Counted from the first letter of the stretch, positions 20,383 through 38,200 are shown. The stretch is 64,000 nucleotides of DNA from Candidatus Omnitrophota bacterium (GCA_022711115.1 JAKLFP010000003.1:9199-73198), one strand, 5' to 3'. A program made the numbers and translations. Notes: a model not told the origin generated them from the letters alone.

Positions 20383-21252
20383 TTATGCCTCAGCATCCGA
20401 AGATTGTTTTGTGAGATGCACCTCCAAGCGGCGCCTCTCGTCGATGCCCATGGAAAGAAACATTAACCCGACCTCAAAACAACCTTCCTGGCTGGACGGC
20501 AGGCACCGAACAACGCGGCAGACCATGCGCAAAGGCTTATTGTTCTGATAAAGATCCAGGGCTACATTCAGCGTATGGCCCGGCACCAGTCTCTCTTTCG
20601 CAAGAATCAACAGCCCCCCCGCACTCACGTTGACCGCCTGGGCAATCTTGCCTTCCGAAACCTCCTGCTTGCTCCCATGAACCAACCGATATGCCACCGG
20701 CGCGCCAAACGGCACCCTTTGGAAAAACCGTTTGTTTTTCGCTTGATCCGCCTCGGGTTTGCCGGACTCTGCCGTCGAGAGGCGATGCTTTTGTTCGGCA
20801 GCATTTTGCTCCGTGAGCTGATTCATCAAATGTGACAAAATTTTGCTAAGACTCACGATCCCGACCACTTTGGTTCCGTGATCCACCACCGCCATCTTGG
20901 AGATTTTTTCGAAAAGCATCAGCTCCGCCATATGCTCGATCGTCTCAAGAGGCGTAAACGCCTGAAGTCTGGAACTCATGAATTTATGAACAGAAGTTTT
21001 TCGAAGCTCTTCCTTCAAAATTTTGGGGAATTCGACGTTGCTCGAGAGGCTGACCTTTTCGGTCTCGCTGTACAACTTATTCAGAAGTTCTGTTTCGAAC
21101 AACATGCCACAATAATTTAAATCCGAATCGACCACCACAAAATCCGCCGTTCCGCGCACGCGTGACATCTCAAAAACCTCTTCCACGGTCGTCTTCTCAT
21201 GCACGGTCACAATGTGCGAGTCCATCACTTCTTTAGCGATCATGCGGGTCAA
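20383..21252 (-). CDS. CBS-pair plus PilZ domain protein (putative c-di-GMP receptor)
   Basis: Two CBS motifs sit at the N-terminus. The C-terminus has the RFFQRV (RxxxR) and NVSAGGL (DxSxxG-like) PilZ signatures. Confidence 0.55.
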   Translation of the reverse strand: MTRMIAKEVMDSHIVTVHEKTTVEEVFEMSRVRGTADFVVVDSDLNYCGMLFETELLNKLYSETEKVSLSSNVEFPKILKEELRKTSVHKFMSSRLQAFTPLETIEHMAELMLFEKISKMAVVDHGTKVVGIVSLSKILSHLMNQLTEQNAAEQKHRLSTAESGKPEADQAKNKRFFQRVPFGAPVAYRLVHGSKQEVSEGKIAQAVNVSAGGLLILAKERLVPGHTLNVALDLYQNNKPLRMVCRVVRCLPSSQEGCFEVGLMFLSMGIDERRRLEVHLTKQSSDAEA

Positions 21253-22052
21253 GATCCTTTTCCAATCGAAAGTATTCTCGTCAACGCAGCCAAGAGGTCC
21301 GGGCTTTCATGAAACGAAATGACACGATCACGAGGCATGAAATCGCAGGTAAAGCCTGCGAGCTTCTCGTCCGAGAACACATAAAAAGGAGTAGTTTGGA
21401 GATGGGGGTCTTCCGCTAATTCCTTCTGGATCTTTCGGGCGTTGAAAATGTTCATATCCTGCCAGAATTGAACAAAAATATAATGGGGCCTTATCTTTTT
21501 GGCCGTTTGGATCACGTCCTTTTCATCCCACTCTATTTCCACGGTAAAACCCTCGGACGCCAAAAAACTCTGCATCTTCTTGAGAATAAACTCACTGGGC
21601 CCTCCCAAGAGAACCCGCCTCTTTCCCGAAGGGGATTTTAAACCACCTTCCTTGGATTCCGCGGTCTTTTCCGTTTCCGCGGGTTTGACAGCCAAAGAAA
21701 CTTTTTTCATGAATTCCGCGCACAGAATAGGTTTCGAACAAAAATAAAAAACATCTTCTGCCCGGAAGAGATCACGGGCCAAACCTGGATCCGCAATGAC
21801 AATCACGGGAGTACGCCGAAAATCCGGCAACGCCTTCACTTTTTCAAAAAGCTGATAGCCCGGCATTTTGGAAAGGACCGCATCAAGGATGATGAGCTGC
21901 GGTTGGAGTTCGTGAATTTTTTGAAATCCCAGGAGCCCGTCTTCCGCGGTAAAAACCTCATAGCCGTCTAGGAGAAGACGGGCTTCGAGCATGGTGGTTA
22001 AATTAATATCAGAACTAATGATCAGGATTTTCGGCATACATAAAACTAGCAA
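21249..22052 (-). CDS. receiver-domain protein (REC plus degenerate second REC-like half)
   Basis: KILIISSDINL...IILDAVLSKMPG is a CheY-like fold. A 4-nt overlap couples it to the CBS-PilZ gene. Confidence 0.5.
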   Translation of the reverse strand: MLVLCMPKILIISSDINLTTMLEARLLLDGYEVFTAEDGLLGFQKIHELQPQLIILDAVLSKMPGYQLFEKVKALPDFRRTPVIVIADPGLARDLFRAEDVFYFCSKPILCAEFMKKVSLAVKPAETEKTAESKEGGLKSPSGKRRVLLGGPSEFILKKMQSFLASEGFTVEIEWDEKDVIQTAKKIRPHYIFVQFWQDMNIFNARKIQKELAEDPHLQTTPFYVFSDEKLAGFTCDFMPRDRVISFHESPDLLAALTRILSIGKGS

Positions 22053-22093: not shown

Positions 22094-23164
22094 CTACGTT
22101 TGTTCATCCCCCGGGCGATCCAGTGATACACCCCCGTCGGACTTTCCTCTCTCTTCTTGCGCGGCATTCATCAATACCTTCCTTTCATTCAATTCAACTT
22201 TTACCCTTCCCCGCGGGACGGCGTCCGGTTTACAACCTGTCCCCTCGGTACCCGGTACCGTTCTAGGTACCGTTCTAAAAAGTTGATATTTATTGATGCG
22301 TTGCTTCAGATGGTCAATCACTTGGGGCATTAAACCGGAAAGAAAACGATGATACTGTCCTTGCGGGTTGAGCATGTTTTCCTTAATCCAGACAAGCATT
22401 TCTTTTTCCTTAGCTTCATCTCCTGTTAACTCGGACATGCGCTGTACTGCCGCATGAAGCATCACCCACGCCCCTTCACCTTGTGCCACAATAACATCCT
22501 GTCTTTTTTCAACCAGTTGTTCATAATATTTTCTTGCGTCCTTAAAATTACCGGCATGTTCCGCCATCATCGCTTGTTTTGAAAGCCTTAAAATATCCGT
22601 ACTTTCCGGTAGCTTTTCTTCCATATATCGCTTTTGCTCATCATAAGAAGCCGTCTCAAAATCAGCAAGGCTGCGGATAGCACCAACACTTTGAGGCATA
22701 GGCTTGGACTCTACGATCTTTTTACCCCGCTTCTGCGCTTCGATTTTTTGAAGTAAACGAGTTTTCATATTTTTATATCTGATTCGATTTTTGCTTTTAG
22801 ATGAAACATTTTGTTTATCAAAAAAATAAATCCACCAATCAACTTGCTCTATGGCTTTTTGATATTCGCCTGTTTGTTCATAAAAATTCGCAAGCCCACC
22901 TCTTACCACTTTCTCAAGTACGCCACCTTTAGCCAATGACAAAGCCTTAAAATAAAGCGCCTCTGATTCGTGCATGCGTCCATCTTTCATATAATCATAA
23001 GCGTGTGAACAAAGCGTAAAAACGGCTTCATGTTTTTTGGTCTCGTTCGATATGGTTTGCTCATTGGCAACAGGATTTGCAAAGTTATTTTCTATGTGTG
23101 CAAATAAAATCGAGAAGGAAATAATCATCCCCAAAATGCCCTTAAACAATATTTTGTTTTTCAT
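22094..23164 (-). CDS. secreted TPR-like protein, paralogue of the 23984-24883 product (candidate orphan immunity protein); C-terminus reads through a REP-like repeat
   Basis: Signal peptide. The C-terminal 180 aa are paralogous to the 23984-24883 product, including a 100% identical 115-nt tract. The tail ...TVPRTVPGTEGTG... is encoded by a REP copy. Confidence 0.5.
   Translation of the reverse strand: MKNKILFKGILGMIISFSILFAHIENNFANPVANEQTISNETKKHEAVFTLCSHAYDYMKDGRMHESEALYFKALSLAKGGVLEKVVRGGLANFYEQTGEYQKAIEQVDWWIYFFDKQNVSSKSKNRIRYKNMKTRLLQKIEAQKRGKKIVESKPMPQSVGAIRSLADFETASYDEQKRYMEEKLPESTDILRLSKQAMMAEHAGNFKDARKYYEQLVEKRQDVIVAQGEGAWVMLHAAVQRMSELTGDEAKEKEMLVWIKENMLNPQGQYHRFLSGLMPQVIDHLKQRINKYQLFRTVPRTVPGTEGTGCKPDAVPRGRVKVELNERKVLMNAAQEERGKSDGGVSLDRPGDEQT
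22234..22278. repeat. solo REP-like palindromic repeat (aacctgtcccctcggtacccggtaccgttcta, with the last 12 nt duplicated)
   Basis: Same unit as those flanking both RAYT genes. It contains two GGTACC palindromes. Confidence 0.6.
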
Positions 23165-23338
23165 AAAAAATATCTCGTATATTTGGAAGGATCTATTTTG
23201 ATAACTCCGCTTTCTTCATCAACATAGACGCCGCGACTTTCATCCTCAGCCAAAAAGTCAAAAAGAACATTAGGGTCGTGGTTACCTGCCGCAAGATTTA
23301 AATCCCTCATAAACAAATTGGTTTGCTGGTAATAAAAA

Positions 23339-24020
23339 GGTACCGGGTACCAAGGGGACAGGTTAATCTAGACACCCACCAACTCCTTATCAATGAGTTC
23401 TTCATAGGGACGAGTTGCTTCGACATGTCGACGGTAACGTTCTTGCCTTATCTCTGGCTGTCCTCCCAATGCTTGATATGCAACCGATACCGTCAAAAGT
23501 TCGTTTTTGATCCCGTACGCATAAAAACCATAACTGGAATAGGGCCATTCTGCCGGATTTGAAACCATTTTCGCTCTTACCGGATTCCTTTCGATATATC
23601 GGCCGCAATCCAATAAATAGTTCTCTTTTTCAATTGGTAAGCTTCGATAACGTCCTTGAAATAAATGGCCGAAATGCGTATAGTTTTTTCGGTAGTAATG
23701 ATGATAAGCTCGCTGAATTCCATGCATGTAGCGGCTTAACTCCAAAGAGTTTTCACTTCTCAACAAAAGATGCGCATGATTCGTCATAAGACAGTAATGT
23801 TGAATTTGAACCGGATATTTTTTGAGATATTCACCTATAATTTCGAGAAATTCGTCAAAATCTTCATACCCATGAAACAGTCTCCCTTTATTGTTCCCCC
23901 GAACAATAACATGATAAAGTCCTGTTCCTGACTCTTGCCTTGGACTTCTCCCCATTCATACTCACCTGCCTTTACTGTCTATTTCAACCTGTCCCCTCGG
24001 TACCCGGTACCGTTCTATAA
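23339..24020 (-). mobile_element. RAYT unit 1: REP-like IR, Y1/IS200-like transposase gene, REP-like IR
   Basis: Inverted copies of aacctgtcccc(t/c)(t/c)ggtacccggtacc lie at 23339-23364 and 23986-24020, bracketing the CDS. Confidence 0.65.
23368..23955 (-). CDS. REP-associated tyrosine transposase (IS200/IS605 Y1 HuH family)
   Basis: HuH motif in LMTNHAHLLL and catalytic Tyr in CGRYIERNP. About 90% identical to the second copy at 25343-25930. Confidence 0.75.
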   Translation of the reverse strand: MGRSPRQESGTGLYHVIVRGNNKGRLFHGYEDFDEFLEIIGEYLKKYPVQIQHYCLMTNHAHLLLRSENSLELSRYMHGIQRAYHHYYRKNYTHFGHLFQGRYRSLPIEKENYLLDCGRYIERNPVRAKMVSNPAEWPYSSYGFYAYGIKNELLTVSVAYQALGGQPEIRQERYRRHVEATRPYEELIDKELVGV

Positions 24021-24883
24021 AGTTGATATTTATTGATGCGTTGCTTCAGATGATCAATCACTTGAGGCATCAAACCAGAAAGAAAGTGATGATATTGCCC
24101 TTGAGGATTGAGCATGTTTTCCTTGATCCAAACAAGCATTTCCTTTTCACGAGCTTCATCACCGGTCAATTCAGACATGCGCTGAACCGCACAATGCAAC
24201 ATCGGCCAAGCCATCTCTCCCTGAGCCGCAGTTACAGCATCCTTTTGAGGCAGCAGCTGTTCGTAAAAACCTTTGGCATCTTTAAAATTTCCAGCATGTT
24301 CCGCCATCATCGCTTGTTTTGAAAGCCTTAAAATATCCGTACTTTCCGGTAGCTTTTCTTCCATATATCGCTTTTGCTCATCATAAGAAGCCGTCTCAAA
24401 ATCAGCAAGGCTGTGAATGGAATTAGGATTCTGAGGCATAGCCTTTGGCTCTTCGATCTTTTCGCCTCTTTTTTGAGCTTCTATTTTTTGAAGGAGGCGT
24501 TGTTTGGTTTTTTGATATTTTTGCAAGGTCTCAGGCACCCGATTAACTTGAAGCATTTTTTCGACAAGTGGCAATGCTTGTTCGTATAATTTAAGCCCCT
24601 CATATATTCGGATTAAACCTACTTGAGCCATCCCTTGTATACTACTTGTAGCCCAATCTTCATATAACACCTCGTAAATTTCCCTTGCGTCGGAGAATTT
24701 CCTTTCCTCCTCAAATTGACGCGCCCGATGAAGCAACGCCCATTGTTCATCGATGTTCTGCGCTATTTGATGATACTTATTCCCGCTTAGCATTTCTTTT
24801 TCAGCAGCACTGCAAACAATGAAATGATGCATCATAAAAAACAAAATCAATTCTATTATTAAAATGCATCGAACATTTTTCAT
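23984..24883 (-). CDS. secreted TPR-like protein, paralogue of the 22094-23164 product (candidate immunity protein for the upstream toxin fragment)
   Basis: Signal peptide. Its shared C-terminal region ends in a REP-encoded ...YRTVPGTEGTG. Confidence 0.5.
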   Translation of the reverse strand: MKNVRCILIIELILFFMMHHFIVCSAAEKEMLSGNKYHQIAQNIDEQWALLHRARQFEEERKFSDAREIYEVLYEDWATSSIQGMAQVGLIRIYEGLKLYEQALPLVEKMLQVNRVPETLQKYQKTKQRLLQKIEAQKRGEKIEEPKAMPQNPNSIHSLADFETASYDEQKRYMEEKLPESTDILRLSKQAMMAEHAGNFKDAKGFYEQLLPQKDAVTAAQGEMAWPMLHCAVQRMSELTGDEAREKEMLVWIKENMLNPQGQYHHFLSGLMPQVIDHLKQRINKYQLYRTVPGTEGTG

Positions 24884-25350
24884 GGCGTATTTCGCAGTCT
24901 AGATATAAATTTATCGAGATTGATTTTGTAGATATCATTTATTTTTTCTACGCAACCATCTGTTCTTTCATTTAAAAATTCGTCAATACCAGCTGACCCA
25001 CGAGCCGCAACCAAATTTAATTCTCTCATAAACAAACTCGTCTGCTGGTTAATGAAATCCGAACACTCATTCTGATTCGGCCCAGAGGCACAACTAAAAT
25101 CCAAATGCCCTGCACCCAGGATTTCTATATTGTACTGGTTTTCGACAGGTCTTACATTACCATTTGCATCTTCAATTTGAAACGTTTGCCCGAGATCCTG
25201 GAGCGGCACAGAATCATATTCCCCCATGACGCGTATCAACGTCTTAAGAAAAGGATCATTGATCACGCCATCGCCGACATAAGGCGCCCCATAAGTAACT
25301 ACGGTTGTAAAACGGTACCGGGTACCCAAGGGACAGGTTGATTTAAACAC
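24880..25350 (-). pseudogene. orphan C-terminal fragment homologous to the hydrolase-like C-terminus of the large effector-like proteins
   Basis: VVTYGAPYVGDGV...ILGAGHLDF aligns with INVYGENDFVPLA...ILGADHFDYF of the 563- and 571-aa proteins. Its N-terminus runs out of the REP flank. Confidence 0.5.
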
Positions 25351-25994
25351 CGATTAGCTCCTTATCAATCAATTCCTCATAAGGCCGTGCCGCTTCAACA
25401 TGTTGGCGGTAAAGCTCCTGCCTCATCTCCGGCCGATCGCCTAATGCCTGATACGCCACTGATTCTGTTACAAGTTCGTTTTTGATGCCATAAGCATAAA
25501 AACCATAACTCGAATACGGCCACTCTATGGGAGCCAAAATCATTTTCGCTCTTAATGGATTTCTTTCAATATATCGTCCACAATCCAATAAATAATTCTC
25601 TTTTTCAATGGGTAAACTTCGATAACGTCCTTGAAATAAATGGCCGAAATGCGTATGGTTTTTTCGGTAGTAATGATGATAAGCCCGCTGAACTCCGTGC
25701 ATGTAGCGGCTTAACTCCAAAGAGTTTTCACTTCTCAACAAAAGATGCGCATGATTCGTCATAAGACAGTAATGTTGAATTTGAACCGGATATTTTTTGA
25801 GATATTCACCTATAATCTCGAGAAATTCGTCAAAATCTTCATGCCCATGAAACAGTCTCCCTTTATTGTTCCCCCGAACAATAACATGATAAAGTCCTGT
25901 TCCTGACTCTTGCCTTGGACTTCTCCCCATTCATACTCTCCTGCCTTTACTGTCTATTTCAACCTGTCCCCTCGGTACCCGGTACCTTTCTATT
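25314..25994 (-). mobile_element. RAYT unit 2: REP-like IR, Y1 transposase gene, REP-like IR
   Basis: IRs lie at 25314-25339 and 25961-25994. Confidence 0.65.
25343..25930 (-). CDS. REP-associated tyrosine transposase (IS200/IS605 Y1 HuH family), second copy
   Basis: Same motifs as copy 1. Confidence 0.75.
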   Translation of the reverse strand: MGRSPRQESGTGLYHVIVRGNNKGRLFHGHEDFDEFLEIIGEYLKKYPVQIQHYCLMTNHAHLLLRSENSLELSRYMHGVQRAYHHYYRKNHTHFGHLFQGRYRSLPIEKENYLLDCGRYIERNPLRAKMILAPIEWPYSSYGFYAYGIKNELVTESVAYQALGDRPEMRQELYRQHVEAARPYEELIDKELIGV

Positions 25995-26160
25995 TTTTAC
26001 CATTTTGATCTACAATTTGAAAATTCTGGTGATCAAGAAAGGGCACTGACAAGCCGTCCGCTGACCCGCGAACCCGGATTAATGTCTGAAGATAAGGATC
26101 ATTGATGATGTCATCCCCGGCATGAGGACCTTCATAAACTGTTTTATATAACCTATACTC
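25995..26160 (-). pseudogene. second remnant of the effector C-terminal region (non-coding relic)
   Basis: Nucleotide similarity to 25215-25320 (aggatcattgat...gacatgagg...cataa), but with no intact ORF. Confidence 0.3.
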
Positions 26161-26169
26161 TTTTACTTA

Positions 26170-26649
26170 TTATGTTTGGCCAAGTAATTTTTGTTTTTTA
26201 TCAAATAATTCTTTTTTGGTTTCTTCGCTTTGACAATTTTTGATTAACCAATTAATTTCTTTTACTGCATCATTAAAAGCACCTTTGCTTTGATATAACC
26301 GAGCCAATGCATAGTGTGATGTCCAGGAATAAAAACTATTTTCACTAACTTGAATGGCTCTATTAAATTCAGCTATCGCCTCATCAATATTTCCTTCTTT
26401 CTCAAGTTGGATCGCACGGTCTTCTGCTGCCCACCGTGGTTGGCTTTTCATAGTCACTTTTTTAAGACCTTCTTGTTGTTTATCATTTATTCCAATCCAC
26501 AAAATATTAGCAGGAATCTGCTCCTTAGAATCTTTTCGTTCTTGATAATTCTCAGTAGCCAGAGCTGGTGGTACTATAAAAAAAATTAACACAAGACAAA
26601 ATGTGATTTCGCTTTTCTTTTTCTTATTGATAATCATCTGGCAACTCAC
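26170..26649 (-). CDS. small secreted TPR-like protein (candidate cognate immunity/partner of 26624-28315)
   Basis: 159 aa with a signal peptide and TPR-like helices (YALARLYQSKGAFNDAVKEINWLIKN). It overlaps the stop of the large gene. Confidence 0.5.
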   Translation of the reverse strand: MSCQMIINKKKKSEITFCLVLIFFIVPPALATENYQERKDSKEQIPANILWIGINDKQQEGLKKVTMKSQPRWAAEDRAIQLEKEGNIDEAIAEFNRAIQVSENSFYSWTSHYALARLYQSKGAFNDAVKEINWLIKNCQSEETKKELFDKKQKLLGQT

Positions 26650-28315
26650 TTGAATTTACTTTGTAGCTCCCGTCGCTTTGCTTAAACTGAGCTAAAAAAC
26701 TTAACAGATAATCTTGACCTTTATCAGATAAGCGGGCTATTTCGGCCACAAATTTCCCGATTCTACTGCTCCCATCCGCCTTAGGAAAGTAATCAAAATG
26801 ATCGGCCCCAAGGATTTTAATGTTGATATTTTCGATAGGGACACCATTGGGTCCTGTAAAAGATTTGTTACCTGACGCCAACGGAACAAAATCATTTTCA
26901 CCGTATACATTAATGAATCGTTTGACATTTGAGTTGTTGATCGTCCCCTCATAGAGCGTACCCTCAAGCGTCGGGCCGCCAAGAGCAATTATAGTTGAGA
27001 CATTGTAGTCCCTCTGATCGATCGCTTTCAAGAAGGGATTTGTGCTTCCCGAATACATTACAGCCGTCACACCATGCGTTCTTTGAGCTTCGGTCAAAGC
27101 AATCCATTTTTGATCCAATTTATTCATAAGTTCATTGGTCAATTGATCGCCGCCGAGAGCATCAACGACCCAAGACAAGCTATCTGTAACCGGATTGCCG
27201 TTTTCATACATCGGAGCTAAAAAAATACTCGCAGGATCTACCCCGCGTTCAATCAAGCGGTTCATGAGATTGAATTCATAATCTGGAGGCACACCTTCTG
27301 GCTTAGTATTCCATATCCCATTAGACGCTACAAAGGAGACGAGAGCTTGCTTTTGGATAGAAGTCAACTTTGCAAGGCTCATACCACTAAGGTTAAGATT
27401 CTGTCCGCTTGTCGCAGGCATTGCCAAAGAAATCAACTGTCCTTCAGAAAATTCAAGGCGCGCACCTGTTACTTTATTGATAAAAACAGCTGAATAAATC
27501 GTCCCATCCGGATTTAATACTATCTGATTACCTCCGGTCGCATAAATTTCAAAAAGTTGTTTGTCATTAGAAAAAACTCGATATCCGTGAGCCAGCCCGT
27601 TTTTAACTTCCAAAACCGTATGCAACCCATCAGAAAAGACAGTTTCTACAACACCCTCCTTTAACAAAAACTGTCCATCAGGACCGACCACAAAGATGCC
27701 TCTTTCCGTTTGATCTCCTATCCTCCGTCCGAGCAGAATAGAATCATCGGTGGTTGAAAAATAAAGATCATTATTGGAATCAATATGAACTGCTTTGACG
27801 GGGATTCCATTTAGCACCGTATAATCTGATCTATGAGTAAGGATATCTAATAATCCACCTTGATTTAAAATTGATTCAATAGCATTTCTTTTAAAAATAG
27901 CCGTGGCAAATGTGTCTAAAGCGCCTAAAAGTCCTCTTTGTTTAATCACCTGCATAAAATCAAGAGCTTCTCCAAAGTAAGCCGCTAAGCTCTCAAGGTT
28001 TGTCATTTTAATTCCAAAAAAAGGATTGATTTGCTTAACAGACTTTAAGAAAGCTTCAGCCATAGAACTAACAATCGTCTGATTAGGATTAATCGCCCCA
28101 ATAACTCCAGCCGTTGCAAAACGAAGACCCAAGGCAGTAAAAAGTGGATCAACATTTAGTTTTTCACTGGTAAAATCTAAACCAACCGATATAAGCCCTC
28201 CCATCGTTTCTCTGTTCAATATCGCATTCTGGATCGATTGCCACAAAGAAGCGGGATTGCTGTTTGGATTTATGAATGAACTAATGGCACCTCCCACGGC
28301 TGCGGCCAGCGGCAT
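26624..28315 (-). CDS. large effector-like protein A with alpha/beta-hydrolase-like C-terminal domain
   Basis: 563 aa with no signal peptide. C-terminal motifs are MYSGS (possible nucleophile elbow), YGENDFVP (acid) and ILGADHFDYF (His). About 75% identical to protein B. Confidence 0.55.
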   Translation of the reverse strand: MPLAAAVGGAISSFINPNSNPASLWQSIQNAILNRETMGGLISVGLDFTSEKLNVDPLFTALGLRFATAGVIGAINPNQTIVSSMAEAFLKSVKQINPFFGIKMTNLESLAAYFGEALDFMQVIKQRGLLGALDTFATAIFKRNAIESILNQGGLLDILTHRSDYTVLNGIPVKAVHIDSNNDLYFSTTDDSILLGRRIGDQTERGIFVVGPDGQFLLKEGVVETVFSDGLHTVLEVKNGLAHGYRVFSNDKQLFEIYATGGNQIVLNPDGTIYSAVFINKVTGARLEFSEGQLISLAMPATSGQNLNLSGMSLAKLTSIQKQALVSFVASNGIWNTKPEGVPPDYEFNLMNRLIERGVDPASIFLAPMYENGNPVTDSLSWVVDALGGDQLTNELMNKLDQKWIALTEAQRTHGVTAVMYSGSTNPFLKAIDQRDYNVSTIIALGGPTLEGTLYEGTINNSNVKRFINVYGENDFVPLASGNKSFTGPNGVPIENINIKILGADHFDYFPKADGSSRIGKFVAEIARLSDKGQDYLLSFLAQFKQSDGSYKVNSSELPDDYQ

Positions 28316-28418
28316 TCCGAGAAGTTCGGAGATGCGCGGTTTTCAGCAGTCAGAGGGGAATCGATTTTGATGCCCCATAGTGGCCTATGGTCGAAACAAA
28401 TGTCAAAGATCAAAAAAA

Positions 28419-28919
28419 CTATCGGCCGTTTTTTAAAATTTGTTTTTGGTTATTCTTATCCTTCAAGACAGCTTCGAGAAGATTTTGCTTTCTCTCAGCA
28501 TATTTGGTCGCCAAGCTTGGTTTCAATATGATCAACTGGTTTAGATGTTCAAGCGCAAGACGATAGTCACCTTTTTTCTCATAAAGATCGAGCAACGAAC
28601 GTCGCGGCACACCTTCGTCACCTTTGGTCTTCGCCAACTTTAAAGCGATATTGTATTCTTCTATGGCCAAATCAAGTTCACCAGCATCTTCGAACTTACT
28701 TCCCTTACGAATATGTTCCCACTGCTCATGTATTTTTTGTCTTCTAATTTGAAAAGCATCGCTCTGTTCTTTACTTGCACCAACAATCATTATCGTGTCT
28801 CCTCCTGATTCGCGCGATTCACTACTTTTAGTCTCTTGAGACGGCTTGCCGGCAAAGCCCATAAGCAAAAAAACTATTCCACACACATACGTTATTGTTT
28901 TAATTTTATCGTATCGCAT
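28419..28919 (-). CDS. small secreted TPR-like protein (candidate cognate immunity/partner of 28919-30634)
   Basis: 166 aa with a signal peptide and TPR-like helices. Its ATG abuts the stop of the large gene. Confidence 0.5.
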   Translation of the reverse strand: MRYDKIKTITYVCGIVFLLMGFAGKPSQETKSSESRESGGDTIMIVGASKEQSDAFQIRRQKIHEQWEHIRKGSKFEDAGELDLAIEEYNIALKLAKTKGDEGVPRRSLLDLYEKKGDYRLALEHLNQLIILKPSLATKYAERKQNLLEAVLKDKNNQKQILKNGR

Positions 28920-30634
28920 TAGGAGTTCCCTTCTTCAAAAGATAATTCATCTGGATTAACAATATAAGTATGCGTATTCTCATCATACGAAACGCCAGCG
29001 GTAGTTTCAAAGAAATAGTCGAGTTTACTACCACTTGCTTGCGCCGCTTCACTAAGCCGTGCTACAAACTCTCCTATCTTATTGCTGCCATCTGGCACGG
29101 GGAAATAATCGAAGTGATCAGCGCCAAGAATTTTGATATTTAGGGTGGTGATACCTTCAAAGGATTTGTTACCACCTAAAACTGGGCCAGCAAGCGGCAC
29201 ATAATCTTTATCACCATAGATATTGATAAACGTTTTTACGTGAGAATTATCAATATGCCCTTCATAAAATGTCCCTTCGATCGATGGCCCGCCAAGCGAA
29301 ATAATCGTGGAGACATTGTAGTCTCGTCTATCAATTGCTTTCAAGAAAGGATTTAGACTTCCCGAATACAACACCGAAACGACGCCGTGATCTCGCTGAG
29401 CTGGTGTCATCGTGATCCATTTCTGATCCAGCTTATTGATAAGCTCATCGGTAAGCTGGTCTCCTCCCAGCATATCCGTCACCCAGGAAAAAGTATCTGT
29501 GACCGGATTACCGTTTTCATACATAGGCGCCAGAAAAATACTGGAAGGATCTACACCGCGCTCTACCAAGCGATTTACGAGGTTAATCTCATAATCGGGG
29601 GAAACGCCTTCCGGCTTGGTATTCCAAATTCCGTTCGACGCGATAAAAGAAACGAGACCCTGTTTCTGGATGGATGTCAACTGGGCCAGTGTCATTCCGC
29701 TGACATTAATACTCTGTCCGCTGGGTGCCGTCATGCTAAAAGAAACAAGCTGGCCTTGGGAAAACTCGAGTCTCGCTCCGGTTACCTTATTAATGAAAAC
29801 GGCTGAATAAATACTTCCATCCGGATTCAAAGCGATCTGATTCCCGCCTGTTGCATAAATTTCAAAAAGATCCTTACTATCTGAAAAAACCCGGTAGCCA
29901 TGAGCTTGCCCGTTTTTCACTTCCAGAACAGTATGCATACCATCGGGGAATGTGGTTTCTACAACCCCCTCTTTTAATAAAAACTTTCCGCCGGCGCCGA
30001 TTACAAACGCGCCTCGTTCCACCTGATTACCACTTCTTCGCCCTAAAAGGATCGAATCATCCGTTGTTGAAAAATACAGATCGTTGTTTGCATCAATGTG
30101 GATAGCTTTTACGGGTATTCCGTTCACGGTCGTATATTCCGCCTGTCCTGTAAGAATATCGGCAAGTCCGCCTTGCCGCAGAATGGATTCGATCGCATCC
30201 CTCTTGAAAATAGAAGTGGCATACAAATCCAACGCAGCCAGGAGCCCTTTTTCCCGAATCAGATCAACAAAGTTAATGGCTTGGGAAAAATAGAACGCCA
30301 GACTTTCGGGACTCGTTACATCCATCCCGTCAAAAGGGTTCAGCCGTTTGACGGAATCCAAAAAGGCTTCGGCCATGGCACTCATGATCGTCTGATCGGG
30401 ATTGATTGCTCCCATCACTCCAGCAGTAGCCAAACGTAAACCTAAAGCCGAAAAAAGAGGGTTGATATTAAGTTTTTCGCTCGCAAGATCGAATCCAATG
30501 GAAAGAACACCCCCTATCGTTTCTCGACTGAACACGGCATTTTGGATGGACTGCCATAAGGAAGTCATCCCGCCATTCGGATTTAAGAGGTCCCTTGTAA
30601 CGCCTCCCACTGCCGCGGCAAACGGCAAACCCAC
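28919..30634 (-). CDS. large effector-like protein B (paralogue of A); GTG start as listed
   Basis: 571 aa with the same motif set as A (LYSGS, YGDKDYVP, ILGADHFDYF). Confidence 0.55.
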   Translation of the reverse strand: MGLPFAAAVGGVTRDLLNPNGGMTSLWQSIQNAVFSRETIGGVLSIGFDLASEKLNINPLFSALGLRLATAGVMGAINPDQTIMSAMAEAFLDSVKRLNPFDGMDVTSPESLAFYFSQAINFVDLIREKGLLAALDLYATSIFKRDAIESILRQGGLADILTGQAEYTTVNGIPVKAIHIDANNDLYFSTTDDSILLGRRSGNQVERGAFVIGAGGKFLLKEGVVETTFPDGMHTVLEVKNGQAHGYRVFSDSKDLFEIYATGGNQIALNPDGSIYSAVFINKVTGARLEFSQGQLVSFSMTAPSGQSINVSGMTLAQLTSIQKQGLVSFIASNGIWNTKPEGVSPDYEINLVNRLVERGVDPSSIFLAPMYENGNPVTDTFSWVTDMLGGDQLTDELINKLDQKWITMTPAQRDHGVVSVLYSGSLNPFLKAIDRRDYNVSTIISLGGPSIEGTFYEGHIDNSHVKTFINIYGDKDYVPLAGPVLGGNKSFEGITTLNIKILGADHFDYFPVPDGSNKIGEFVARLSEAAQASGSKLDYFFETTAGVSYDENTHTYIVNPDELSFEEGNS

Positions 30635-30810
30635 AAGTTCCGCAATGCGGGGCTCTCAGCAGTCACAGATCTATTGGTTTTGATGCCCCATAGCGGCTTA
30701 TAGGCAGAATATAACCCAGATCGAGATTCGCGGGATTGTGGCACTGTGAAGAAAAAGAACTAAAGAAGAAGTTATTTCGATGCCGTGATTACGGCATTCG
30801 CAAGATTGAT

Positions 30811-31403: not shown

Positions 31404-32051
31404 TCAAGGTTGCACGTTATTGCGAATCCTCTCCAGAACGGTCCGATCCAATTTAGCAAGATCGTGTTCGCTGACAAGACCGTAAAGTTCAAAGCCATCC
31501 GCATAAAGCTGCAATTGTATTTCGGGACATTGTTCCGACAGGAAGTTCAACCAGCGCAAAAAGCTTTCTCTCGCTTGAGTATTCTGACCTAGCTCTTTTT
31601 CGGCTTTAGCCTTAGCCGCCCATGCAGAAACGCTATTTTCGGGATCCATACCCAAAGCAGCATTGAAGCACTCTAAAGCTTCCTCCCATCGGTTATTCTC
31701 CAGGAGCAAATTTCCTTTTTCCTGGAGCCAGCCGGTATTCTGCGGGTCAATGGCGATGACTTTATCGTAATTCTCAAGCGCATCCGTGAGATTACCAAGA
31801 CAACCTAAACAATAAGCCTTTCCGCTATATATGAATTTTTCTTCGCTTGCTCGATATTCAACATTACTTGCTAAAGTTTTATCAAAATATTCTAGGGCAG
31901 TTTTAAATTCTTCCTTATCCATAGCCTCCCGTGCAAGCTTAAGGTATCCAACTTGATGCAATTCACGACGATAAATGGCCATATTGTTCCTTGGATGTCG
32001 CTTTTGAGGGATAAAATGACATGAATTTTTAAAAAGCAATTCTAACATCAA
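31404..32051 (-). CDS. TPR-repeat protein
   Basis: Three or four TPR units. The likely real start is MAIYRRE with an aagga SD near 31982. Confidence 0.5.
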   Translation of the reverse strand: MMLELLFKNSCHFIPQKRHPRNNMAIYRRELHQVGYLKLAREAMDKEEFKTALEYFDKTLASNVEYRASEEKFIYSGKAYCLGCLGNLTDALENYDKVIAIDPQNTGWLQEKGNLLLENNRWEEALECFNAALGMDPENSVSAWAAKAKAEKELGQNTQARESFLRWLNFLSEQCPEIQLQLYADGFELYGLVSEHDLAKLDRTVLERIRNNVQP

Positions 32052-35000
32052 TATTCATACTTATCTTTACGGTGGATAAATGCTTTCTTGCCTCCTTCCA
32101 AAATCTCAGCACCATGTTCACGTATACCTTGCTTTTTTAGAGGATCCTTAAGGGCGTTGTTAATAAATGAGTTTTCTATCGCTCCACTTACGTACCTTAT
32201 TCTTGCTTGGCCAGCGGAAGGCGCAACTTGGAAGTCGGCTACAATTACTTGTTCAGCGTCAGTATTTAAAACAAGATTAGGGTTATGCGTGACAACAATA
32301 ATTTGGCGCCGTTTCTTTGCTTGGCGGAAATAATCGATGAGATGCGCATACACAGATTTATTATCAAGGTTTTCCTCTGGCTGGTCTATGATAAGCGGTA
32401 TCCCGCTTTTCGCATCTAACGTGAGGTACATAAGCAGCAACACAATCCCCTTCTTGCCGGGAGACAGCAACTCAATATATGTGTTCTGATATTTTATGCT
32501 ATACGTCACACTAAAGAATGAAACACCGAAAAGCCATGCATCAAAATCGATCTGCCTCTTTCCCTTCTTGAACTGATTTTCGGCATCTGATCCCTTTCCA
32601 TCTTCTTTGCCAAACGCCTGCATGAAACGTTCGACAAGAAGGTTGTATGTATCGGCATCTTCTACAAGTTCAATTTTCTCCGCAATAGATTTTATATCCT
32701 TAAACAATTGTTTATCGTCTTGATGATAACGACCAGATGCTTTAAAGTTAACAACCTCGCATGCCTTATCATAAAATCCATTTACATCAAATTCGATTCT
32801 TGCAGAATATCCGATTTGCTTCTCCCCTACATTCTCAGCGTCTATTTTTGCTTTAATGGGAGCACTAAGCGCTTCGAAAATTTCCTTTTCCTTTTGAAGA
32901 AGAATAAAATAATTTTTATAGGTTGTTTTTCTATCTTCGATTTTTTTTGCAAGGATAGGCATCTTAGTTTGTTCTATTTCAGCAATATTCTTCTCTAAGG
33001 CTGAAACCGTTTTCTTATTCTTCTCAATTTTGTCTTCAAAATCTTTGATTACATTTCTCGCATCAGAGGCGATGCTTGATTTTGCCTCTAACCAAGCGAT
33101 TTCCGCATTTAACCCAGAAAGGGAAAGCTTGTTAATATAATCTGAAGTTATTTCGCCGATCTTTTTGTCTTTGCCAGAAACAGGTGATGCCTCCTCCGTT
33201 GCACCTTCTAGAACAATTATCTGTCCCGTTAGTTTCTTCCTCGCTTCTTCTAGTTTAGTTTTAAACTCTGGGTCTACAGTAAATTTCAATTTACTATGAA
33301 TACCGCCTAGACCGATTGAATCAAGATCGGTTTTAATATCACTCAGTTCTTTTTCGATATGTTGAGACAATGTTGAGACCTTTGTCTCTATTGACTCTAT
33401 AGTGCTTAACTGAAGTTTGCACTCAGCAATCTTTTCGTTAATTTCGTTCTTCTTGGCGTAAAGAATAGTCAGCTTATCTTCGATGGCTTTCTCTTCAGCG
33501 TCTGCAGGCTTAGGCTTTTGCTCGTTTAATTGAGCTATTTCTTCTTCGGTCTTCTTTTTTGTTGTCCTTTGAATCTCGAGACTCCCAATCTCTTCCCTTA
33601 ATTTAGCGATCTCGCCATTGAGTTCAAAAATAAGTTTTTTGCAGCTACTCTTTTCCACCTCTACACTTCGTGTTCTCAGGCGTTTCAGGTCAGCAAATGT
33701 TGTTTGCCCAAGCCTGTCGGATATTGGAATATACTGAAAAACGATGTTTTCAATCTCTTGCCTTAATTCATCTGCGTGCTCAGGACGACATCTATTTTCA
33801 ATAAAACTTTGGGAAAGGTATTTAACCTTTTTCTTAGTTTTATAATCAGTCAATTCTTCATCTATAACAATCTCGTCAGGGTCGCCCTCTTTCCATCGAA
33901 TAGTTACCTTGCACTTATCAATCGTTTTTTCAATTTGTTTTGTTGGAGTTAAGGCTTTAAACACAAACGAGCTTGCATCGCCTTTTAGAAGCTCAAAATC
34001 ACCGCATGCTAACGCTATAAAATCAGCAAGTGCAGTCTTACCTGCACCTTTTTCACCGATGATAGCAACTAAGTCTTCATTTAGAGGAAGTGGCGTCTCT
34101 TCAAACCAACCGTTGGAATTTGCAATTTCGACTTTATCAATCACATTCGCTAGATTTTTTCCTTTTGCAGGCATCTTGCCAATATGAATCCTATCTTCTG
34201 GCTCAAGAACAACCTGCTTAAGGCCTATAAATGTCGGGTCTGCTTTTATCCAGCAAAAGCGTTCGAGGTCTGGTCTAGTCTCAAGCTCCTGCTCCGTGTG
34301 AGCATCTGACCCATGGACGCAGGGAAACAATCTGCCGAATTCAGCAATAAATTCTTTCGGCTCTGCATAAGAGGCTTTGTCTTTGCCAAGGAACCAAGCA
34401 ATGTCGTTAGGATTAGAATTAAAAATGCCGTGAGAGATTTGAAGCAGAGTCTTTCGCAATCCATAATCCTGCCCCCAATCGATATCGGACCAAAATTCGC
34501 TTTCTAGAAAAAGAAGATATTTCCCCTTAAAATAATCTGGTTTGTTGCGTAAAGCATTTACTATCTCATCTATTTTAAAAACGATATTCTTTGTGCCGGC
34601 AGACAAATCAGTATCGTGTTTAAAATCGGCCTGTTTCCTACACTCTTTGCCATAATCCTCTATAGCCTTCTTATCAAGCTTAATTTTAGAAAGCTCTCCG
34701 GCGCTACCGCTTCCTTTATAAAAATGAAGATCACCCAAAAACTGCGCCTTAATATCTTGCGGAGAAACTTCGTCACTAAATATGACATGGAAGTTTAATC
34801 GTTTCGGCTCTTTATTGCCCCGCTTACAGACTATATTGTCCAAACGAAATTCTATGTTAGGAAGGATTAATTCCACACTTCCAAGTTTTCCTTTGTAGTC
34901 GGTTATAAGCTTCTCGTACCCATCTATGGAAAAATAATCTGTAACACCAATAACCTTGATCTCTTTTTGCTTCGTAACTTCATCAAGCTTCTTAAAGTAA

Positions 35001-35092
35001 GAATCCCAATTACTAAACCCATTACAGAAAGAAGCTGGAGAATGAACGTGTAAATCCCATTTTCGCCATACAGATCCTCGTTCATACTTCAT
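32048..35092 (-). CDS. PHP-domain phosphoesterase fused to SMC/Rad50-like ABC ATPase with long coiled-coil insert (candidate defence protein)
   Basis: The N-terminus has WDLHVHSPAS...GVTDYFSIDGY (PHP metal-binding motifs). Walker A is GEKGAGKT, followed by about 450 aa of coiled coil, then signature/Walker B/H-loop LIIDQPEENLD...VVTHNPN. Confidence 0.6.
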   Translation of the reverse strand: MKYERGSVWRKWDLHVHSPASFCNGFSNWDSYFKKLDEVTKQKEIKVIGVTDYFSIDGYEKLITDYKGKLGSVELILPNIEFRLDNIVCKRGNKEPKRLNFHVIFSDEVSPQDIKAQFLGDLHFYKGSGSAGELSKIKLDKKAIEDYGKECRKQADFKHDTDLSAGTKNIVFKIDEIVNALRNKPDYFKGKYLLFLESEFWSDIDWGQDYGLRKTLLQISHGIFNSNPNDIAWFLGKDKASYAEPKEFIAEFGRLFPCVHGSDAHTEQELETRPDLERFCWIKADPTFIGLKQVVLEPEDRIHIGKMPAKGKNLANVIDKVEIANSNGWFEETPLPLNEDLVAIIGEKGAGKTALADFIALACGDFELLKGDASSFVFKALTPTKQIEKTIDKCKVTIRWKEGDPDEIVIDEELTDYKTKKKVKYLSQSFIENRCRPEHADELRQEIENIVFQYIPISDRLGQTTFADLKRLRTRSVEVEKSSCKKLIFELNGEIAKLREEIGSLEIQRTTKKKTEEEIAQLNEQKPKPADAEEKAIEDKLTILYAKKNEINEKIAECKLQLSTIESIETKVSTLSQHIEKELSDIKTDLDSIGLGGIHSKLKFTVDPEFKTKLEEARKKLTGQIIVLEGATEEASPVSGKDKKIGEITSDYINKLSLSGLNAEIAWLEAKSSIASDARNVIKDFEDKIEKNKKTVSALEKNIAEIEQTKMPILAKKIEDRKTTYKNYFILLQKEKEIFEALSAPIKAKIDAENVGEKQIGYSARIEFDVNGFYDKACEVVNFKASGRYHQDDKQLFKDIKSIAEKIELVEDADTYNLLVERFMQAFGKEDGKGSDAENQFKKGKRQIDFDAWLFGVSFFSVTYSIKYQNTYIELLSPGKKGIVLLLMYLTLDAKSGIPLIIDQPEENLDNKSVYAHLIDYFRQAKKRRQIIVVTHNPNLVLNTDAEQVIVADFQVAPSAGQARIRYVSGAIENSFINNALKDPLKKQGIREHGAEILEGGKKAFIHRKDKYEY

Positions 35093-35243
35093 TTTTTACC
35101 GCCCTTTTTCTTTGAAGTCATGCGTAACGACATCCTTTAAAATCTTTTTGACACAATTCAAGCAAAAGACGATATTCGATTTTCAAAGTTTCCTTGCGAC
35201 GCGCCATCTTAATAGCAGGCACTTTCTCGTCCTACAATTATCC

Positions 35244-38200
35244 TTAAATCTTTCCACCTGAAATATCAAAAAACCGCTCAAAGAAGCGTGTCAATTTATC
35301 TAAAACACTCTCGCGTTTTTTGGAACGCTCCCCTCCGGGAGAAAAACGTGATACCGGCGGCAAGACTTTGACCAGAGCAGTACCCGTGGTCGCAACCCTG
35401 CCATTACGGAACGCATCCCGAACAAACTGATAGGTTTTGTCGCGATCAAGATTTTCCTGTTTAATAATCGTTTCCAGTTCTTCTGTCTTTTTCTTTTCCA
35501 CATACTTCTGCCAGTCCTCGTCAACAGAAGCATGGATATCCAGGGAAGCGATAAACTCGTTGATGAGATCTTTTTTGTTGCGCAATTCAACGCTTGAGTC
35601 GATGGCCTTGTTGATGTCGACAAGGATTTCGCGGTTTTTGATGTGGTCTTCGTGGTACTTTTTAACGAGACTCAAAATATAATCGATATTGATCTCAATC
35701 TGTTTGATCAGCTCCATCTCAAACACGATATCGTCGTTAATATTCTCCTTTTCAGCTTCACCGGTATTCCGAAATTCATTATAAAGGTCAATGTAGATGC
35801 TGTGATAGTCCTGCGTTTGGCGCTGGGTTAAAATTTCGTGACCGCTGAATTCGTCAAAAGTAACGAGGATATTTCGGACCCGCAAAATGGCGCTGTAAAG
35901 CCTGATGAAATCTTTTTGATTTTGTTCTCCGACGATCCGCTCACCAATCGGGAATTTTGCCAAAAGCTCTTGAACGAGAGAGGCATATCCACGGATTTCC
36001 TTGTCACCGTCTTTGTAGCCGTTGTAGTACTCCTCATACGTTTTTAGAAGAACGATTCCGCTGGCTTCCTTATCGCCAAAGAGGGCGATGGATTCATTGG
36101 TTGCTTTTTCCAGATTCCGAAAGCAAACAATATTTCCGAACGTCTTGACGCTGTTTAAAATGCGATTGGTGCGGGAATATGCCTGCAACAAGCCATGCAG
36201 GCGAAGATTTTTATCCACCCACAACGTGTTGAGCGTCGTGGCGTCAAAGCCAGTCAGAAACATGTTCACAACGAGCAGAAGATCCACTTCCCGATTTTTC
36301 ACCCGCTCGCTGACATCCTTATAGTAATTCTGAAACTTATCGGAAGACGTGTCATAAGAGGTCCCAAACATCGCGTTGTAGTCTTGAATGGCGCTCTCAA
36401 GAAAATCCCTTGAGCTTTGGTCCAATCCGCTGGTGTCCTCGGAATTTTCGTCAATCACCCCATCAATCTCTTCCTCATTGATACCAAAGCTGTAAATCAG
36501 GGCTATTTTGAGTTTTCTATCGCTCGGTGCCTCTGCGATCTGTTTCTTGAATTCAGCGTAATACTTCTTGGCCACTTCGATTGAAGAGACGGCGAAAATA
36601 GAATTAAAACCGGCCAGCCTGCGATTCTTAAGCTTGTAAAAGCTGTTTCGTTTCGTTTTTTGATCGAAATGCTCGCGGATATAGTTCACGATATTGGCTA
36701 AACGTTTCGGTGAAGCAAGCACCGCTTCCCGGTCAATATCGCGCACTTTCTTGTCCTCAATATTTTCAGCTTCCTTTAAAGTCGAAACATAATCCACTTT
36801 GAACGGCAGAACATTTTTGTCCGCAATAGCATCGACGATGGTGTAGGTATGGAGTTTATCGCCAAAAGCCTGCTCGGTCGTCTTAAAATCCGGACGTCCA
36901 CCCGCCGAAGCATTCACTGCAAAAATCGGCGTCCCGGTAAAACCGAAGAGATGGTAATTCTTAAATGCTTTCGTAATCGCGGCATGCATTTCACCGAACT
37001 GAGACCGATGACATTCATCAAAAATCAGCACCACATGGCCGTCAAAAATTGTATGTCCCTTGTTGCGGCCGATGAACCGGTCGAGTTTTTGAATGGTAGT
37101 GATGATAATGCGGGCCTTAGTGTCTTCCAGCTGTCGTTTCAATATCGAAGTACTGGTATTGCTATTGGCCGCACCTTTTTCAAACTTGTCGTATTCCCGC
37201 ATGGTTTGATAATCAAGGTCTTTGCGGTCCACAACAAAAAGCACCTTGTCGATAGAAGACAGTTTACTTGCGAGTTGGGCGGTTTTGAAACTCGTCAGAG
37301 TCTTGCCCGAGCCGGTGGTATGCCAAATGTAACCGCCCGCCGCTACGGTTCCGAGTTTTTTATAGTTCGTGCTCACCTCAATCCTGTTCAATATTCTTTC
37401 CGTTGCCACAATCTGATACGGGCGCATTACCAAAAGCTGTTTGTCAGCCGTGAACACGCAGTAGCGGGTGAGGATATTAAGAAGAACATGTTTGGCAAAA
37501 AAGGTCTTGGCAAAATCGACAAGATCAGCAATCGGTTTATTGGTCGCATCCGCCCACCAGCTTGTGAATTCGAAGCTGTTACTGGTCCGCTTGCCTTTCT
37601 TTAAGGAGCCTTCGCTTAATTCTTTGATATGTTCCGCACGTGTCGTGTTGCTGTAGTATTTCGTGTGAGTGCCGTTCGAGATGACAAAAATCTGAACATA
37701 TTCAAAAAGCCCAGAGCCCGCCCAAAAACTCTCCCGCTGGTAACGTCTGATCTGATTAAAAGCCTCCTGAATCGCCACCCCACGTCGTTTCAGTTCAATA
37801 TGAACGACTGGTAAGCCGTTAACCAGCACCGTTACATCGTAGCGGTTGGCTCTTTGACCTTCTTCAGTGGCGTATTGATTGATAACCTGTAGCCTGTTTT
37901 CGTGAATTTTGTCTTTGCGGAGCAAATAGATATTTTTAACTGTTCCGTCATCTCTTTTCAGGTTCTTGATAAAATCTTCCTGAATCGTGGCCGTTTTTTC
38001 GGCAATACTCTGGTTGGGATTAGCTATCTCGCCCGTAAAAAAGCGATCCCATTCCATATCGGAGAAGGTGAAGTCATTCAGTTTTTCAATTTGTTTGCGA
38101 ATGTTAAGAATCAAGTCGGTTTCGGAAGTGATCGCCAAATAGTCATAAGCCTGCGATTGCAACTGCTCGATAAACGCACGTTCCAGTTCCGCCTCACCTT

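Follow-up and report, generated by a model that had tools for sequence, protein, structure and literature searches.

Detached C-terminal cassettes of giant Omnitrophota proteins: a putative lipase-like effector and its periplasmic TPR partner

What is the function of a gene array in which large hydrolase-like proteins alternate with small secreted ones, and which is broken up by gene fragments and transposases? The question is raised by a 64-kb stretch of one Omnitrophota genome (Candidatus Omnitrophota bacterium, GCA_022711115.1 JAKLFP010000003.1:9199-73198), referred to here as the window, where such an array occupies positions 22094-30720 of the minus strand. Two large proteins, Large B and Large A, are each followed by a small secreted protein related to the tetratricopeptide repeat (TPR) families; the array further holds pieces of other large proteins, two more TPR proteins and two REP-associated tyrosine transposases (RAYTs; REP, repetitive extragenic palindrome). 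A first-pass annotation had read these genes as a polymorphic toxin/immunity locus. All the genes it named were found again on the minus strand where it had placed them, and its toxin/immunity reading is supported by the comparisons described below. The array appears to consist of four detached cassettes, two intact and two truncated, each a copy of the end of a giant secreted protein. We consider it probable, if well short of certain, that they encode a polymorphic lipase-like effector and its cognate periplasmic TPR immunity protein, kept in the window as orphan cassettes.

The identity of the large proteins could not be read from the usual profile libraries. Large B (571 amino acids (aa); 28919-30634) and Large A (563 aa; 26624-28315), both on the minus strand and 69% identical over their full length, have no match in Pfam, NCBIfam or PADLOC. 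A sequence search of the PDB, with the protein and with a domain profile, gave chance-level matches only, the best being the YahD hydrolase (E 0.41), aligned on the Y-S-x-G nucleophile motif. A word-indexed homologue search returned six relatives and missed all of the giants; an exhaustive profile search brought up 245 relatives, and the counts given below refer to 154 proteins, that is, the matches listed together with those of the first search. In every long relative the matched region is the C-terminal end. Giants of 2,063-4,772 aa account for 54 of the 154 relatives (among the matches listed), and those with a named source are all from Omnitrophota. In P0007 (3,827 aa), residues 3273-3827 match Large A with an E of 1.6e-267; the gene was recovered whole from an Omnitrophota metagenome-assembled genome (locus L003), where it begins with a signal peptide. 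Another giant open reading frame (ORF), of more than 3,872 aa, runs off the end of its locus (L005), and its last ~570 aa correspond to Large B with 85% identity in the N-terminal module and 97% in the catalytic core. An N-terminal hydrophobic stretch is present in 32 of the 54 giants among the matches listed. As these alignments show, Large A and Large B are the last ~560 residues of giant Omnitrophota proteins and not whole proteins.

Pfam matches to RHS_repeat, TcdB_toxin_midN, FG-GAP and Peptidase_C39 were found in three giants, the Peptidase_C39 domain standing 300-900 residues before the matched region. The RHS_repeat match is clear in P0008 (8e-25) and weak or faint in other giants, and at least three YxYDxxG motifs occur in 8 of the 54 (among the matches listed). 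Some parents have laminin-G or cadherin/Big_9 domains in place of the RHS region and keep the C-terminal part. One or two strongly hydrophobic helices and a Gly/Ala-rich stretch separate the matched region from the C39-like domain. The parent can be pictured, then, as starting with a signal peptide and continuing with long repeats (weak RHS/YD, FG-GAP and TcdB-mid, or laminin-G or cadherin-like domains in some members), the C39-like domain, the hydrophobic helices, the Gly/Ala-rich stretch, a module of ~310 aa and finally the tip. An identity as classical Rhs toxins was considered and rejected: the Rhs core-end motif PxxxxDPxGL is found in none of the 54 giants (among the matches listed), and the C39-like domain and hydrophobic helices intervene between the repeats and the module. 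Inspection by eye of the C39-like domain in P0007 (~2810-2960) and in the L005 giant found the His motif GNHYV[IV] kept and G-Q-S-A-F at the position expected for the catalytic Cys; the Pfam match covers profile positions 46-121 only. As for delivery, the first-pass annotation had seen no system for it, naming VgrG and PAAR among the missing components. That part stands, as a search of window ORFs and an inspection of the other loci turned up no linkage to VgrG/PAAR or TcA. The route is nonetheless partly answered, since a vehicle was found: the large ORFs are the 3' ends of genes for giant proteins.

The matched region itself is made of two parts, profile positions 1-300 (~310 residues) forming a conserved module and positions 326-557 a separate domain, the tip. 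Among the matches listed, 43 relatives carry the module followed by unmatched tails of 200-730 residues, which fall into at least 23 unrelated clusters, and the hydrolase tip is found in a further 56. The PT-TG pre-toxin domain, present in two tails, was the sole Pfam result among 30 alternative tails; several other tails have different GxSxG motifs. At one syntenic site after hrcA-grpE-dnaJ (... Toluene_X), the giants P0108 (4,455 aa) and P0118 (3,475 aa) stand with different alleles of both tip and partner. What was found is thus a secreted protein of great size in which one region is conserved and the C-terminal domain can be exchanged; together with an adjacent immunity gene, a conserved region and a variable C-terminal toxin define the polymorphic-toxin pattern (PMC3482391). 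The polymorphic architecture proposed by the first-pass annotation is therefore borne out, in the form of one module with many unrelated tips, two of them with PT-TG. Beside these comparisons, two further observations were made: small toxin-antitoxin genes (MazE/PIN, BrnT) lie just downstream in L015 and in the P0118 locus, and a 3,473-aa member with a non-hydrolase tip, P0047 (L009, 10001-20422), sits between dapA and dapB in a row of arginine/lysine biosynthesis genes. No partner gene was found beside P0047.

A Ser...Asp...His arrangement had been suspected in the C-terminal part of the large proteins, and the conservation of the tip argues for it. Across 56 diverse homologous tips, S422 (in YSGS), G423 and H506 (in GADHFDY) are 100% conserved and D475, the ND/KD aspartate, 95%; G333, in an N-G motif after the first strand, is 98% conserved. 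Full-length AlphaFold modelling on 6 sequences gave a pLDDT of 43 and was unusable, but the model of Large A 315-563 from a 32-sequence alignment reached a pLDDT of 95.3 and a pTM of 0.93. In this model the helix after strand 102-107 begins with the Ser, which sits at an elbow between strand and helix; the next two strands, 152-158 and 181-188, are followed by loops that carry the Asp and the His, respectively. Foldseek matched the tip model to Bacillus lipase A and cutinases (E 2e-6), with polyethylene terephthalate (PET) esterases among the closest structures. The structural search that the first-pass annotation called for thus finds the catalytic triad at its canonical topological positions on a predicted α/β-hydrolase fold. 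The sequence identity to Bacillus lipase A and Lip_vut1 (PDB 1i6w, 6nkc) is 13-15%, and the tip differs from both in its nucleophile motif, (G/M/L)-Y-S-G-(S/G), and in an extra helical tail of ~50 residues. The window tip, residues ~315-563 in Large A, comes out, then, as an α/β-hydrolase of ~250 aa, structurally closest to minimal lipases and cutinases.

None of 32 tip sequences has a Pfam family at E up to 1, apart from a single chance-level match to Lipase_3. Membership in Tle1-5 or Tox-ABhydrolase-1 (DUF2235) was rejected, as there was no match to a Pfam profile. Since nothing in Pfam matches even at this threshold, the tip appears to be an undescribed family at the sequence level when set against Pfam; the comparison with Tox-ABhydrolase-2 and -3 goes by their published description only (PMC3482391).

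The small proteins behind the large ones are the second half of the argument. Small B (166 aa; 28419-28919, minus strand), a type B secreted TPR partner with a putative immunity function, starts right at the point where Large B stops. The type A partner is Small A (159 aa; 26170-26649, minus strand), and it overlaps the 3' end of Large A. The two are 25% identical (E 5e-12). All four partner proteins of the array (Small A, Small B and the larger TPR299 and TPR356 described below) have one N-terminal hydrophobic segment, residues 14-32 in the signal-peptide-like case of Small A, in agreement with the signal peptides attributed to them before. Their TPR profile matches mostly fall just below the Pfam gathering scores (TPR_2 in Small A, E 6.7e-6); TPR356 passes the Pfam cut-offs for TPR_12 and TPR_7.

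The arrangement is not peculiar to the window. A TPR gene with a signal peptide (or a lipoprotein signal) directly follows a hydrolase-tipped gene in 12 places at 10 loci outside it, namely L001, L002/L004, L005, L006, L007 (twice), L008, L011, L013, L015 and the P0118 locus, and the stop and start codons of the two genes often overlap or adjoin. At L005 the TPR gene follows the giant ORF of more than 3,872 aa; at L008 the partner is a small TPR-like ORF in which no signal peptide was seen. Small B shares 61% identity with the gene after the L005 giant and 70% with the second of the TPR genes in L004, where a tip fragment (profile positions 458-559) and a B-type TPR gene stand behind an A-type pair. 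Small A is 40-42% identical to the L001 and L004 partners, whose hydrolases share the type A tail. Comparing cassettes by their parts, window B and L001 have 91% identity in the core, 37% in the tail and 30% in the partner; for L001 and L004 the values are 90%, 69% and 64%, and for window B and L005 they are 97%, 64% and 61%. By these values the partner type appears to track the last ~50 hydrolase residues and not the catalytic core. Because it follows the tail in this way, the TPR protein probably binds the variable tail, as the comparison suggests. The first-pass annotation had made its reading depend on whether homologues elsewhere keep the small TPR partner. They do, and the small downstream gene co-varies with the C-terminal domain, its immunity function being predicted.

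The remaining pieces of the array belong, by their alignments, to a third type of cassette. The C-terminal fragment (156 aa; 24880-25350, minus strand), whose 5' end is inside a REP, aligns to Large A 437-509 with 37% identity (E 5e-10) and to the profile at positions 437-524 (E 2e-7). Of a third-type hydrolase tip it still has the tail and the regions around Asp and His, but the part with the Ser nucleophile is missing. The very end of P0108 is 58% identical to it. The relic (58 codons, ~25993-26166, minus strand), a piece of a third-type tip recognized in translation and cut on its 3' side by the first REP/RAYT unit, shows 82% identity to P0118 residues 3350-3398 and 54% to the fragment next to it. 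The third piece is a remnant of about the last 55 codons of a third-type hydrolase gene (23165-23330, minus strand), directly downstream of a REP and upstream of TPR356; it was recognized by direct repeat D8 and by a DNA alignment with the 3' end of the fragment gene. These three pieces are leftovers of one cassette type, the relic representing a different allele.

The two larger TPR proteins fit into the same picture. TPR299 (299 aa; 23984-24883, minus strand), whose start overlaps the stop of the fragment, and TPR356 (356 aa; 22094-23164, minus strand) are 54% identical to each other. The small-TPR profile picks up TPR299 in its N-terminal half (E 2.6e-12), and the same half of TPR356 is also like the small partners. 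P0108 and P0118 are each followed, with a 4-nt overlap, by a TPR gene for a partner of 286-298 aa. Compared with the 298-aa partner of L015, which overlaps the P0108 stop, TPR299 shows 50% identity and TPR356 42%, the latter over the full length of the L015 partner, whose end aligns at TPR356 residue 295. TPR299 and TPR356 are the cognate partners of the third type, being similar to the L015 partner of a fragment-type tip. The earlier reading of the fragments has thus to be revised in part: fragment-plus-partner pairs do recur elsewhere, but fragment, relic and remnant now come out as a cassette type of their own, with TPR299 and TPR356 as its partners. The search for full-length parents of the fragment, which had also been proposed, led to P0108 and P0118.

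It is worth asking next in what sense the window copies are orphans. The similarity that Large A and Large B show to the giant genes breaks off at one and the same codon in both, marked by an in-frame TGA. Neither protein has a signal peptide, a transmembrane or hydrophobic segment, repeats or a peptidase domain, and for lack of signal peptide, repeats and peptidase they are orphan cassettes. There is no ORF above 1106 aa in the 64-kb window and hence no parent or delivery protein within it. L002, L004 and L006 also hold orphans, broken at other points, the L006 one downstream of a tip/partner pair, and the L012 orphan lies downstream of a parent gene. Stand-alone C-terminal cassettes with immunity-like genes were thus found as A and B in the window and in L002, L004, L006 and L012.

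Two REP-RAYT-REP units run through the array on the minus strand. The first, at 25305-25994, holds RAYT1 (25343-25930) between inverted repeats at 25305-25349 and 25951-25994 (I2 and I4); the second, at 23331-24020, holds RAYT2 (23368-23955) between 23331-23374 and 23976-24020. The inverted repeats are 42-45 nt long. Both RAYTs have 195 aa and RAYT2 is 91% identical to RAYT1; they match Pfam Y1_Tnp at E ~1e-15 (1.5e-15 for RAYT1) with 57.8 and 58.6 bits against a cut-off of 23, and NCBIfam REP_Tyr_transpos with 58.6 and 66.6 bits, below its cut-off of 80. The REP core occurs 5 times in the window, where chance alone would give 0. Some REPs overlap the ends of coding regions in the array: the last ~9 codons of TPR299 come from a REP (residues TVPGTEGTG), and TPR356, whose natural end is near 22280, reads on through the REP at 22230-22265 (REP match 22234-22259), by which it gains ~60 residues relative to its 298-aa homologue. 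A Y1_Tnp protein between inverted palindromic repeats is what is known of RAYT elements in general; different here are the two copies 2 kb apart inside a gene array and a recurring association with toxin cassettes. In the window as well as in L008 and L012, REP-flanked Y1 transposases adjoin modules that have lost their 5' part, and the break points differ. This association may reflect a causal link or the general abundance of RAYTs in variable regions. In the latter two loci (L008, a metagenome contig, 1360-3585; L012, a named Omnitrophota genome, 18680-22230), Y1/RAYT-like transposases of ~195 aa and ~300-320 aa were observed directly 5' of the truncated modules.

From these elements a mechanism can be proposed. 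The giant parent would be exported and would present or release the hydrolase, which would attack ester bonds in the envelope of a target cell; the envelope as target is implied by the pairing of a lipase-like hydrolase with a periplasmic partner of the repeat type. The TPR protein in the periplasm of the producer would neutralize the matching hydrolase, probably by binding its variable last ~50 residues. The window copies are undeliverable as they stand, because they have no signal peptide, repeats or peptidase. These orphans would keep immunity genes against the toxins of neighbours, and they could act as spare tips, recombining into the parent gene via the shared ~310-aa module. The REP/RAYT units would have been inserted into the array and duplicated with it, and two cassettes would have been truncated in the process. 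A far wider version may be imagined, in which a phylum-wide Omnitrophota effector system shares the delivery cassette of C39-like domain, helices and 310-aa module, the TPR protein reads the ~50-residue tail as a barcode, and RAYTs and an upstream element of ~70 nt capture, duplicate and reshuffle the cassettes. This version we regard as a long shot; if it were true, RAYTs would be given a role in the turnover of toxin arrays.

Several points weigh against the effector-immunity proposal for the window. No parent gene lies within the 64 kb. Between Large A and Large B, the proportion of non-synonymous differences (pN) is 0.18 and that of synonymous ones (pS) is saturated, so that both appear to be under strong purifying selection, which a silent reservoir does not need. 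Upstream of the two genes lies a stretch of ~73 nt, ~70% identical between them and unrelated to the giant genes. In alignment with those genes, this conserved non-coding element (direct repeat D4, minus strand) takes up 30635-30701 before Large B and 28316-28388 before Large A, with the same junction and in-frame TGA in both. It is better conserved than the saturated synonymous sites of A and B. Its 22-nt core has two sites only in the window, upstream of A and of B, and the element was matched nowhere else in the window or in eight loci. RNA folding of the element was not significant (z -2.1 and -1.4, with folds that differ between the copies), and promoter and terminator scans of the upstream region gave background levels. 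The selection and the conserved element together are hints that the orphans A and B may be expressed on their own. A partner that tracks the tail would fit a chaperone or adaptor as well, and the sample behind the co-variation is small (five loci, two to three types). Since the core-end motif is absent from all 54 giants, release of the tip by the classical Rhs route is ruled out. The tip, moreover, sits behind hydrophobic helices in the giants, a position compatible with the outside, the periplasm or the cytoplasm. Lastly, we infer the toxicity and neutralization of the pairs, as we do the lipid substrate, the export route, any part played by recombination, and what the C39-like domain and the RAYTs do.

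The alternative that survives best, though we hold it to be unlikely, turns the same parts outward. Here the giants would serve predatory or epibiotic Omnitrophota in attacking prey or hosts; the tip would digest lipids or esters of the prey envelope, the TPR protein would shield the producer's own envelope, and the variability would reflect prey range and not kin competition. Gene neighbourhoods lend it some weight. According to a preprint (bioRxiv 10.1101/2023.11.21.568195), giant Omnitrophota genes lie near loci resembling type II secretion systems (T2SS), followed by pilZ genes. T2SS-like or pilin-like genes were found within 6-10 kb in L001, L005, L014 and L015, and in the window a gene for a CBS-PilZ protein, with a response regulator (20383-22052, minus strand), comes directly downstream of the array. 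The secretin gene that the first-pass annotation had placed 20 kb away is present at 397-2310. Taken as gene context, these T2SS-like neighbours and the CBS-PilZ/secretin surroundings agree with the published neighbourhoods of giant genes. P0047, with its non-hydrolase tip and no partner gene, would fit tips that are harmless to the producer. What the prey-attack explanation leaves out is the allelic replacement of tip and partner at one syntenic locus, the orphan partner genes and the fragment/partner pairs, all of which are a self/non-self signature among relatives; nor would so tight a co-variation of cognate partners be needed if only the producer's own enzyme had to be blocked.

A quite unlikely alternative starts from the tail. 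The TPR protein could be a periplasmic chaperone or export adaptor for the hydrolase tail, and the hydrolase a non-toxic tip on a giant surface protein, for instance a polymer esterase for feeding. TPR domains typically bind peptide tails, and it is with the last ~50 residues, not with the core, that the partner type goes; Small A has a weak match to the LcrH/SycD chaperones (E 0.054), and cutinases and PET esterases are among the closest structures. A chaperone, however, has no reason to persist beside tip fragments without a nucleophile, as in the fragment/TPR299 and remnant/TPR356 pairs and in the L004 fragment with its B-type TPR gene, and none to accumulate as extra copies. The PT-TG pre-toxin domain in other tips on the same module, and unrelated tips on one scaffold in general, are typical of toxins and not of a feeding enzyme.

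The weakest alternative, that the large/TPR pairs are an anti-phage or abortive-infection module of the adjacent defence island, is very improbable and was rejected: the array does abut a Ppl-like ATPase and a type I restriction-modification system, with three integrases further on, but PADLOC has no match for the large or TPR proteins, the large ORFs are termini of giant proteins, most of which have a signal-peptide-like N-terminus, the partners are exported, and in other genomes the pairs sit in housekeeping neighbourhoods and not in defence islands.

The surroundings in question are as follows. The G+C content of the array (38-43%) is below that of the flanking sequence. On its upstream side come a zinc-ribbon protein, a TPR protein, the Ppl-like ATPase and the type I restriction-modification system. 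The defence island spans 31404-40987 on the minus strand; its Ppl-like PHP/ATPase (1014 aa, 32048-35092; PADLOC Ppl, 1.4e-20) has the TPR protein before it, and hsdR, hsdS and hsdM (35244-40987, minus strand) after it. A ThiF + DUF6791 protein (43325-44524) and a 195-aa ORF without family match (42266-42853) lie side by side; the latter has the length of a RAYT, yet no Y1_Tnp match. Three tyrosine-recombinase genes of the phage integrase family within 4 kb (54541-55542, 55478-56725 and 57369-58307, minus strand) suggest a mobile or shufflon-like region.

How does the proposed effector-immunity system compare with those already described? T6SS (type VI secretion system) lipase effectors of the Tle families with periplasmic Tli immunity proteins were reportedly described by Russell et al. 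in 2013, and the Tli5 immunity group is Sel1/TPR-like. The likeness lies in the lipase-like serine hydrolase and in the periplasmic immunity protein of the repeat type. The differences are that the window has no T6SS, VgrG or PAAR, that there is no match to DUF2235 or any Tle-related Pfam family, and that the hydrolase here forms the tip of a giant protein whose N-terminus resembles a signal peptide. The Tle/Tli-style pairing favoured by the first-pass annotation has to be given up, with no T6SS link in the window and no Tle-related Pfam match to sustain it.

Orphan toxin/immunity cassettes are known from Rhs and contact-dependent inhibition (CDI, CdiA) systems (PMC3150448, PMC3967940). As in those, there are 5'-truncated copies of the variable C-terminal region with immunity genes, which keep a conserved upstream stretch and lie downstream of a tip/partner pair (L006) or of the parent gene (L012), and there are fragment-plus-immunity pairs. 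Unlike those, the parents are neither Rhs proteins of a T6SS nor CdiA proteins of a type V secretion system; they begin with a signal peptide, have hydrophobic helices and a C39-like domain ahead of the module, and lack the PxxxxDPxGL core end. The window array does not lie beside a parent gene, and REP/RAYT units are interleaved with it.

The catalogue of Zhang et al. 2012 (PMC3482391) includes toxins dependent on Sec and T2SS, with RHS repeats and Tox-ABhydrolase tips; what they share with the present family is a signal peptide, repeats, a variable C-terminal toxin and an adjacent immunity gene. Lipase-like α/β-hydrolases are a recognized class of toxin domain there, and PT-TG occurs here in sister tips. 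The hydrolase domain and the ~310-aa module, however, match no Pfam model in our hands and the TPR partners mostly stay below the Pfam cut-offs; C39-like domains, listed as toxins in the catalogue, are internal here. The catalogue has TPR only as fusions to immunity domains, does not list secreted stand-alone TPR immunity proteins, and does not cover Omnitrophota.

Finally, giant Omnitrophota proteins of at least 7,000-30,000 aa have been described under the names "Archaeovorins" and Dockerin-type (bioRxiv 10.1101/2023.11.21.568195). They share with the present giants the phylum, the C39-like domains, transmembrane segments near the C-terminus, RHS-like β-helical regions, and T2SS-like and pilZ neighbours; they are described there without a polymorphic tip, partner gene or orphan cassette, and the proteins here are smaller, at 2,063-4,772 aa. 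In a term search of the text of this and of a 2026 Omnitrophota-genome preprint, polymorphic toxins went unmentioned and the word "immunity" had no relevant use.

Measured against profile libraries, three families appear to be undescribed: the ~310-aa module, the Pfam-less α/β-hydrolase domain of toxin type, and the secreted TPR partner. The concept of polymorphic toxins is not overturned by them; what they add to it is a new scaffold and a new phylum. Ultra-small and uncultured, the Omnitrophota may be predators, and their giant proteins have no assigned mechanism. The present analysis ties the C-terminal ends of Omnitrophota proteins in the size range studied here to a concrete hypothesis, in which a lipase-like effector would be matched by a periplasmic TPR protein as its cognate partner, and shows the tips of these giants to be exchangeable parts. 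The tail, serving as a "barcode" in place of the catalytic core, would be a possible new mode of recognition. And with RAYTs beside truncated cassettes in three separate loci, domesticated transposases may take part in the turnover of the cassettes.

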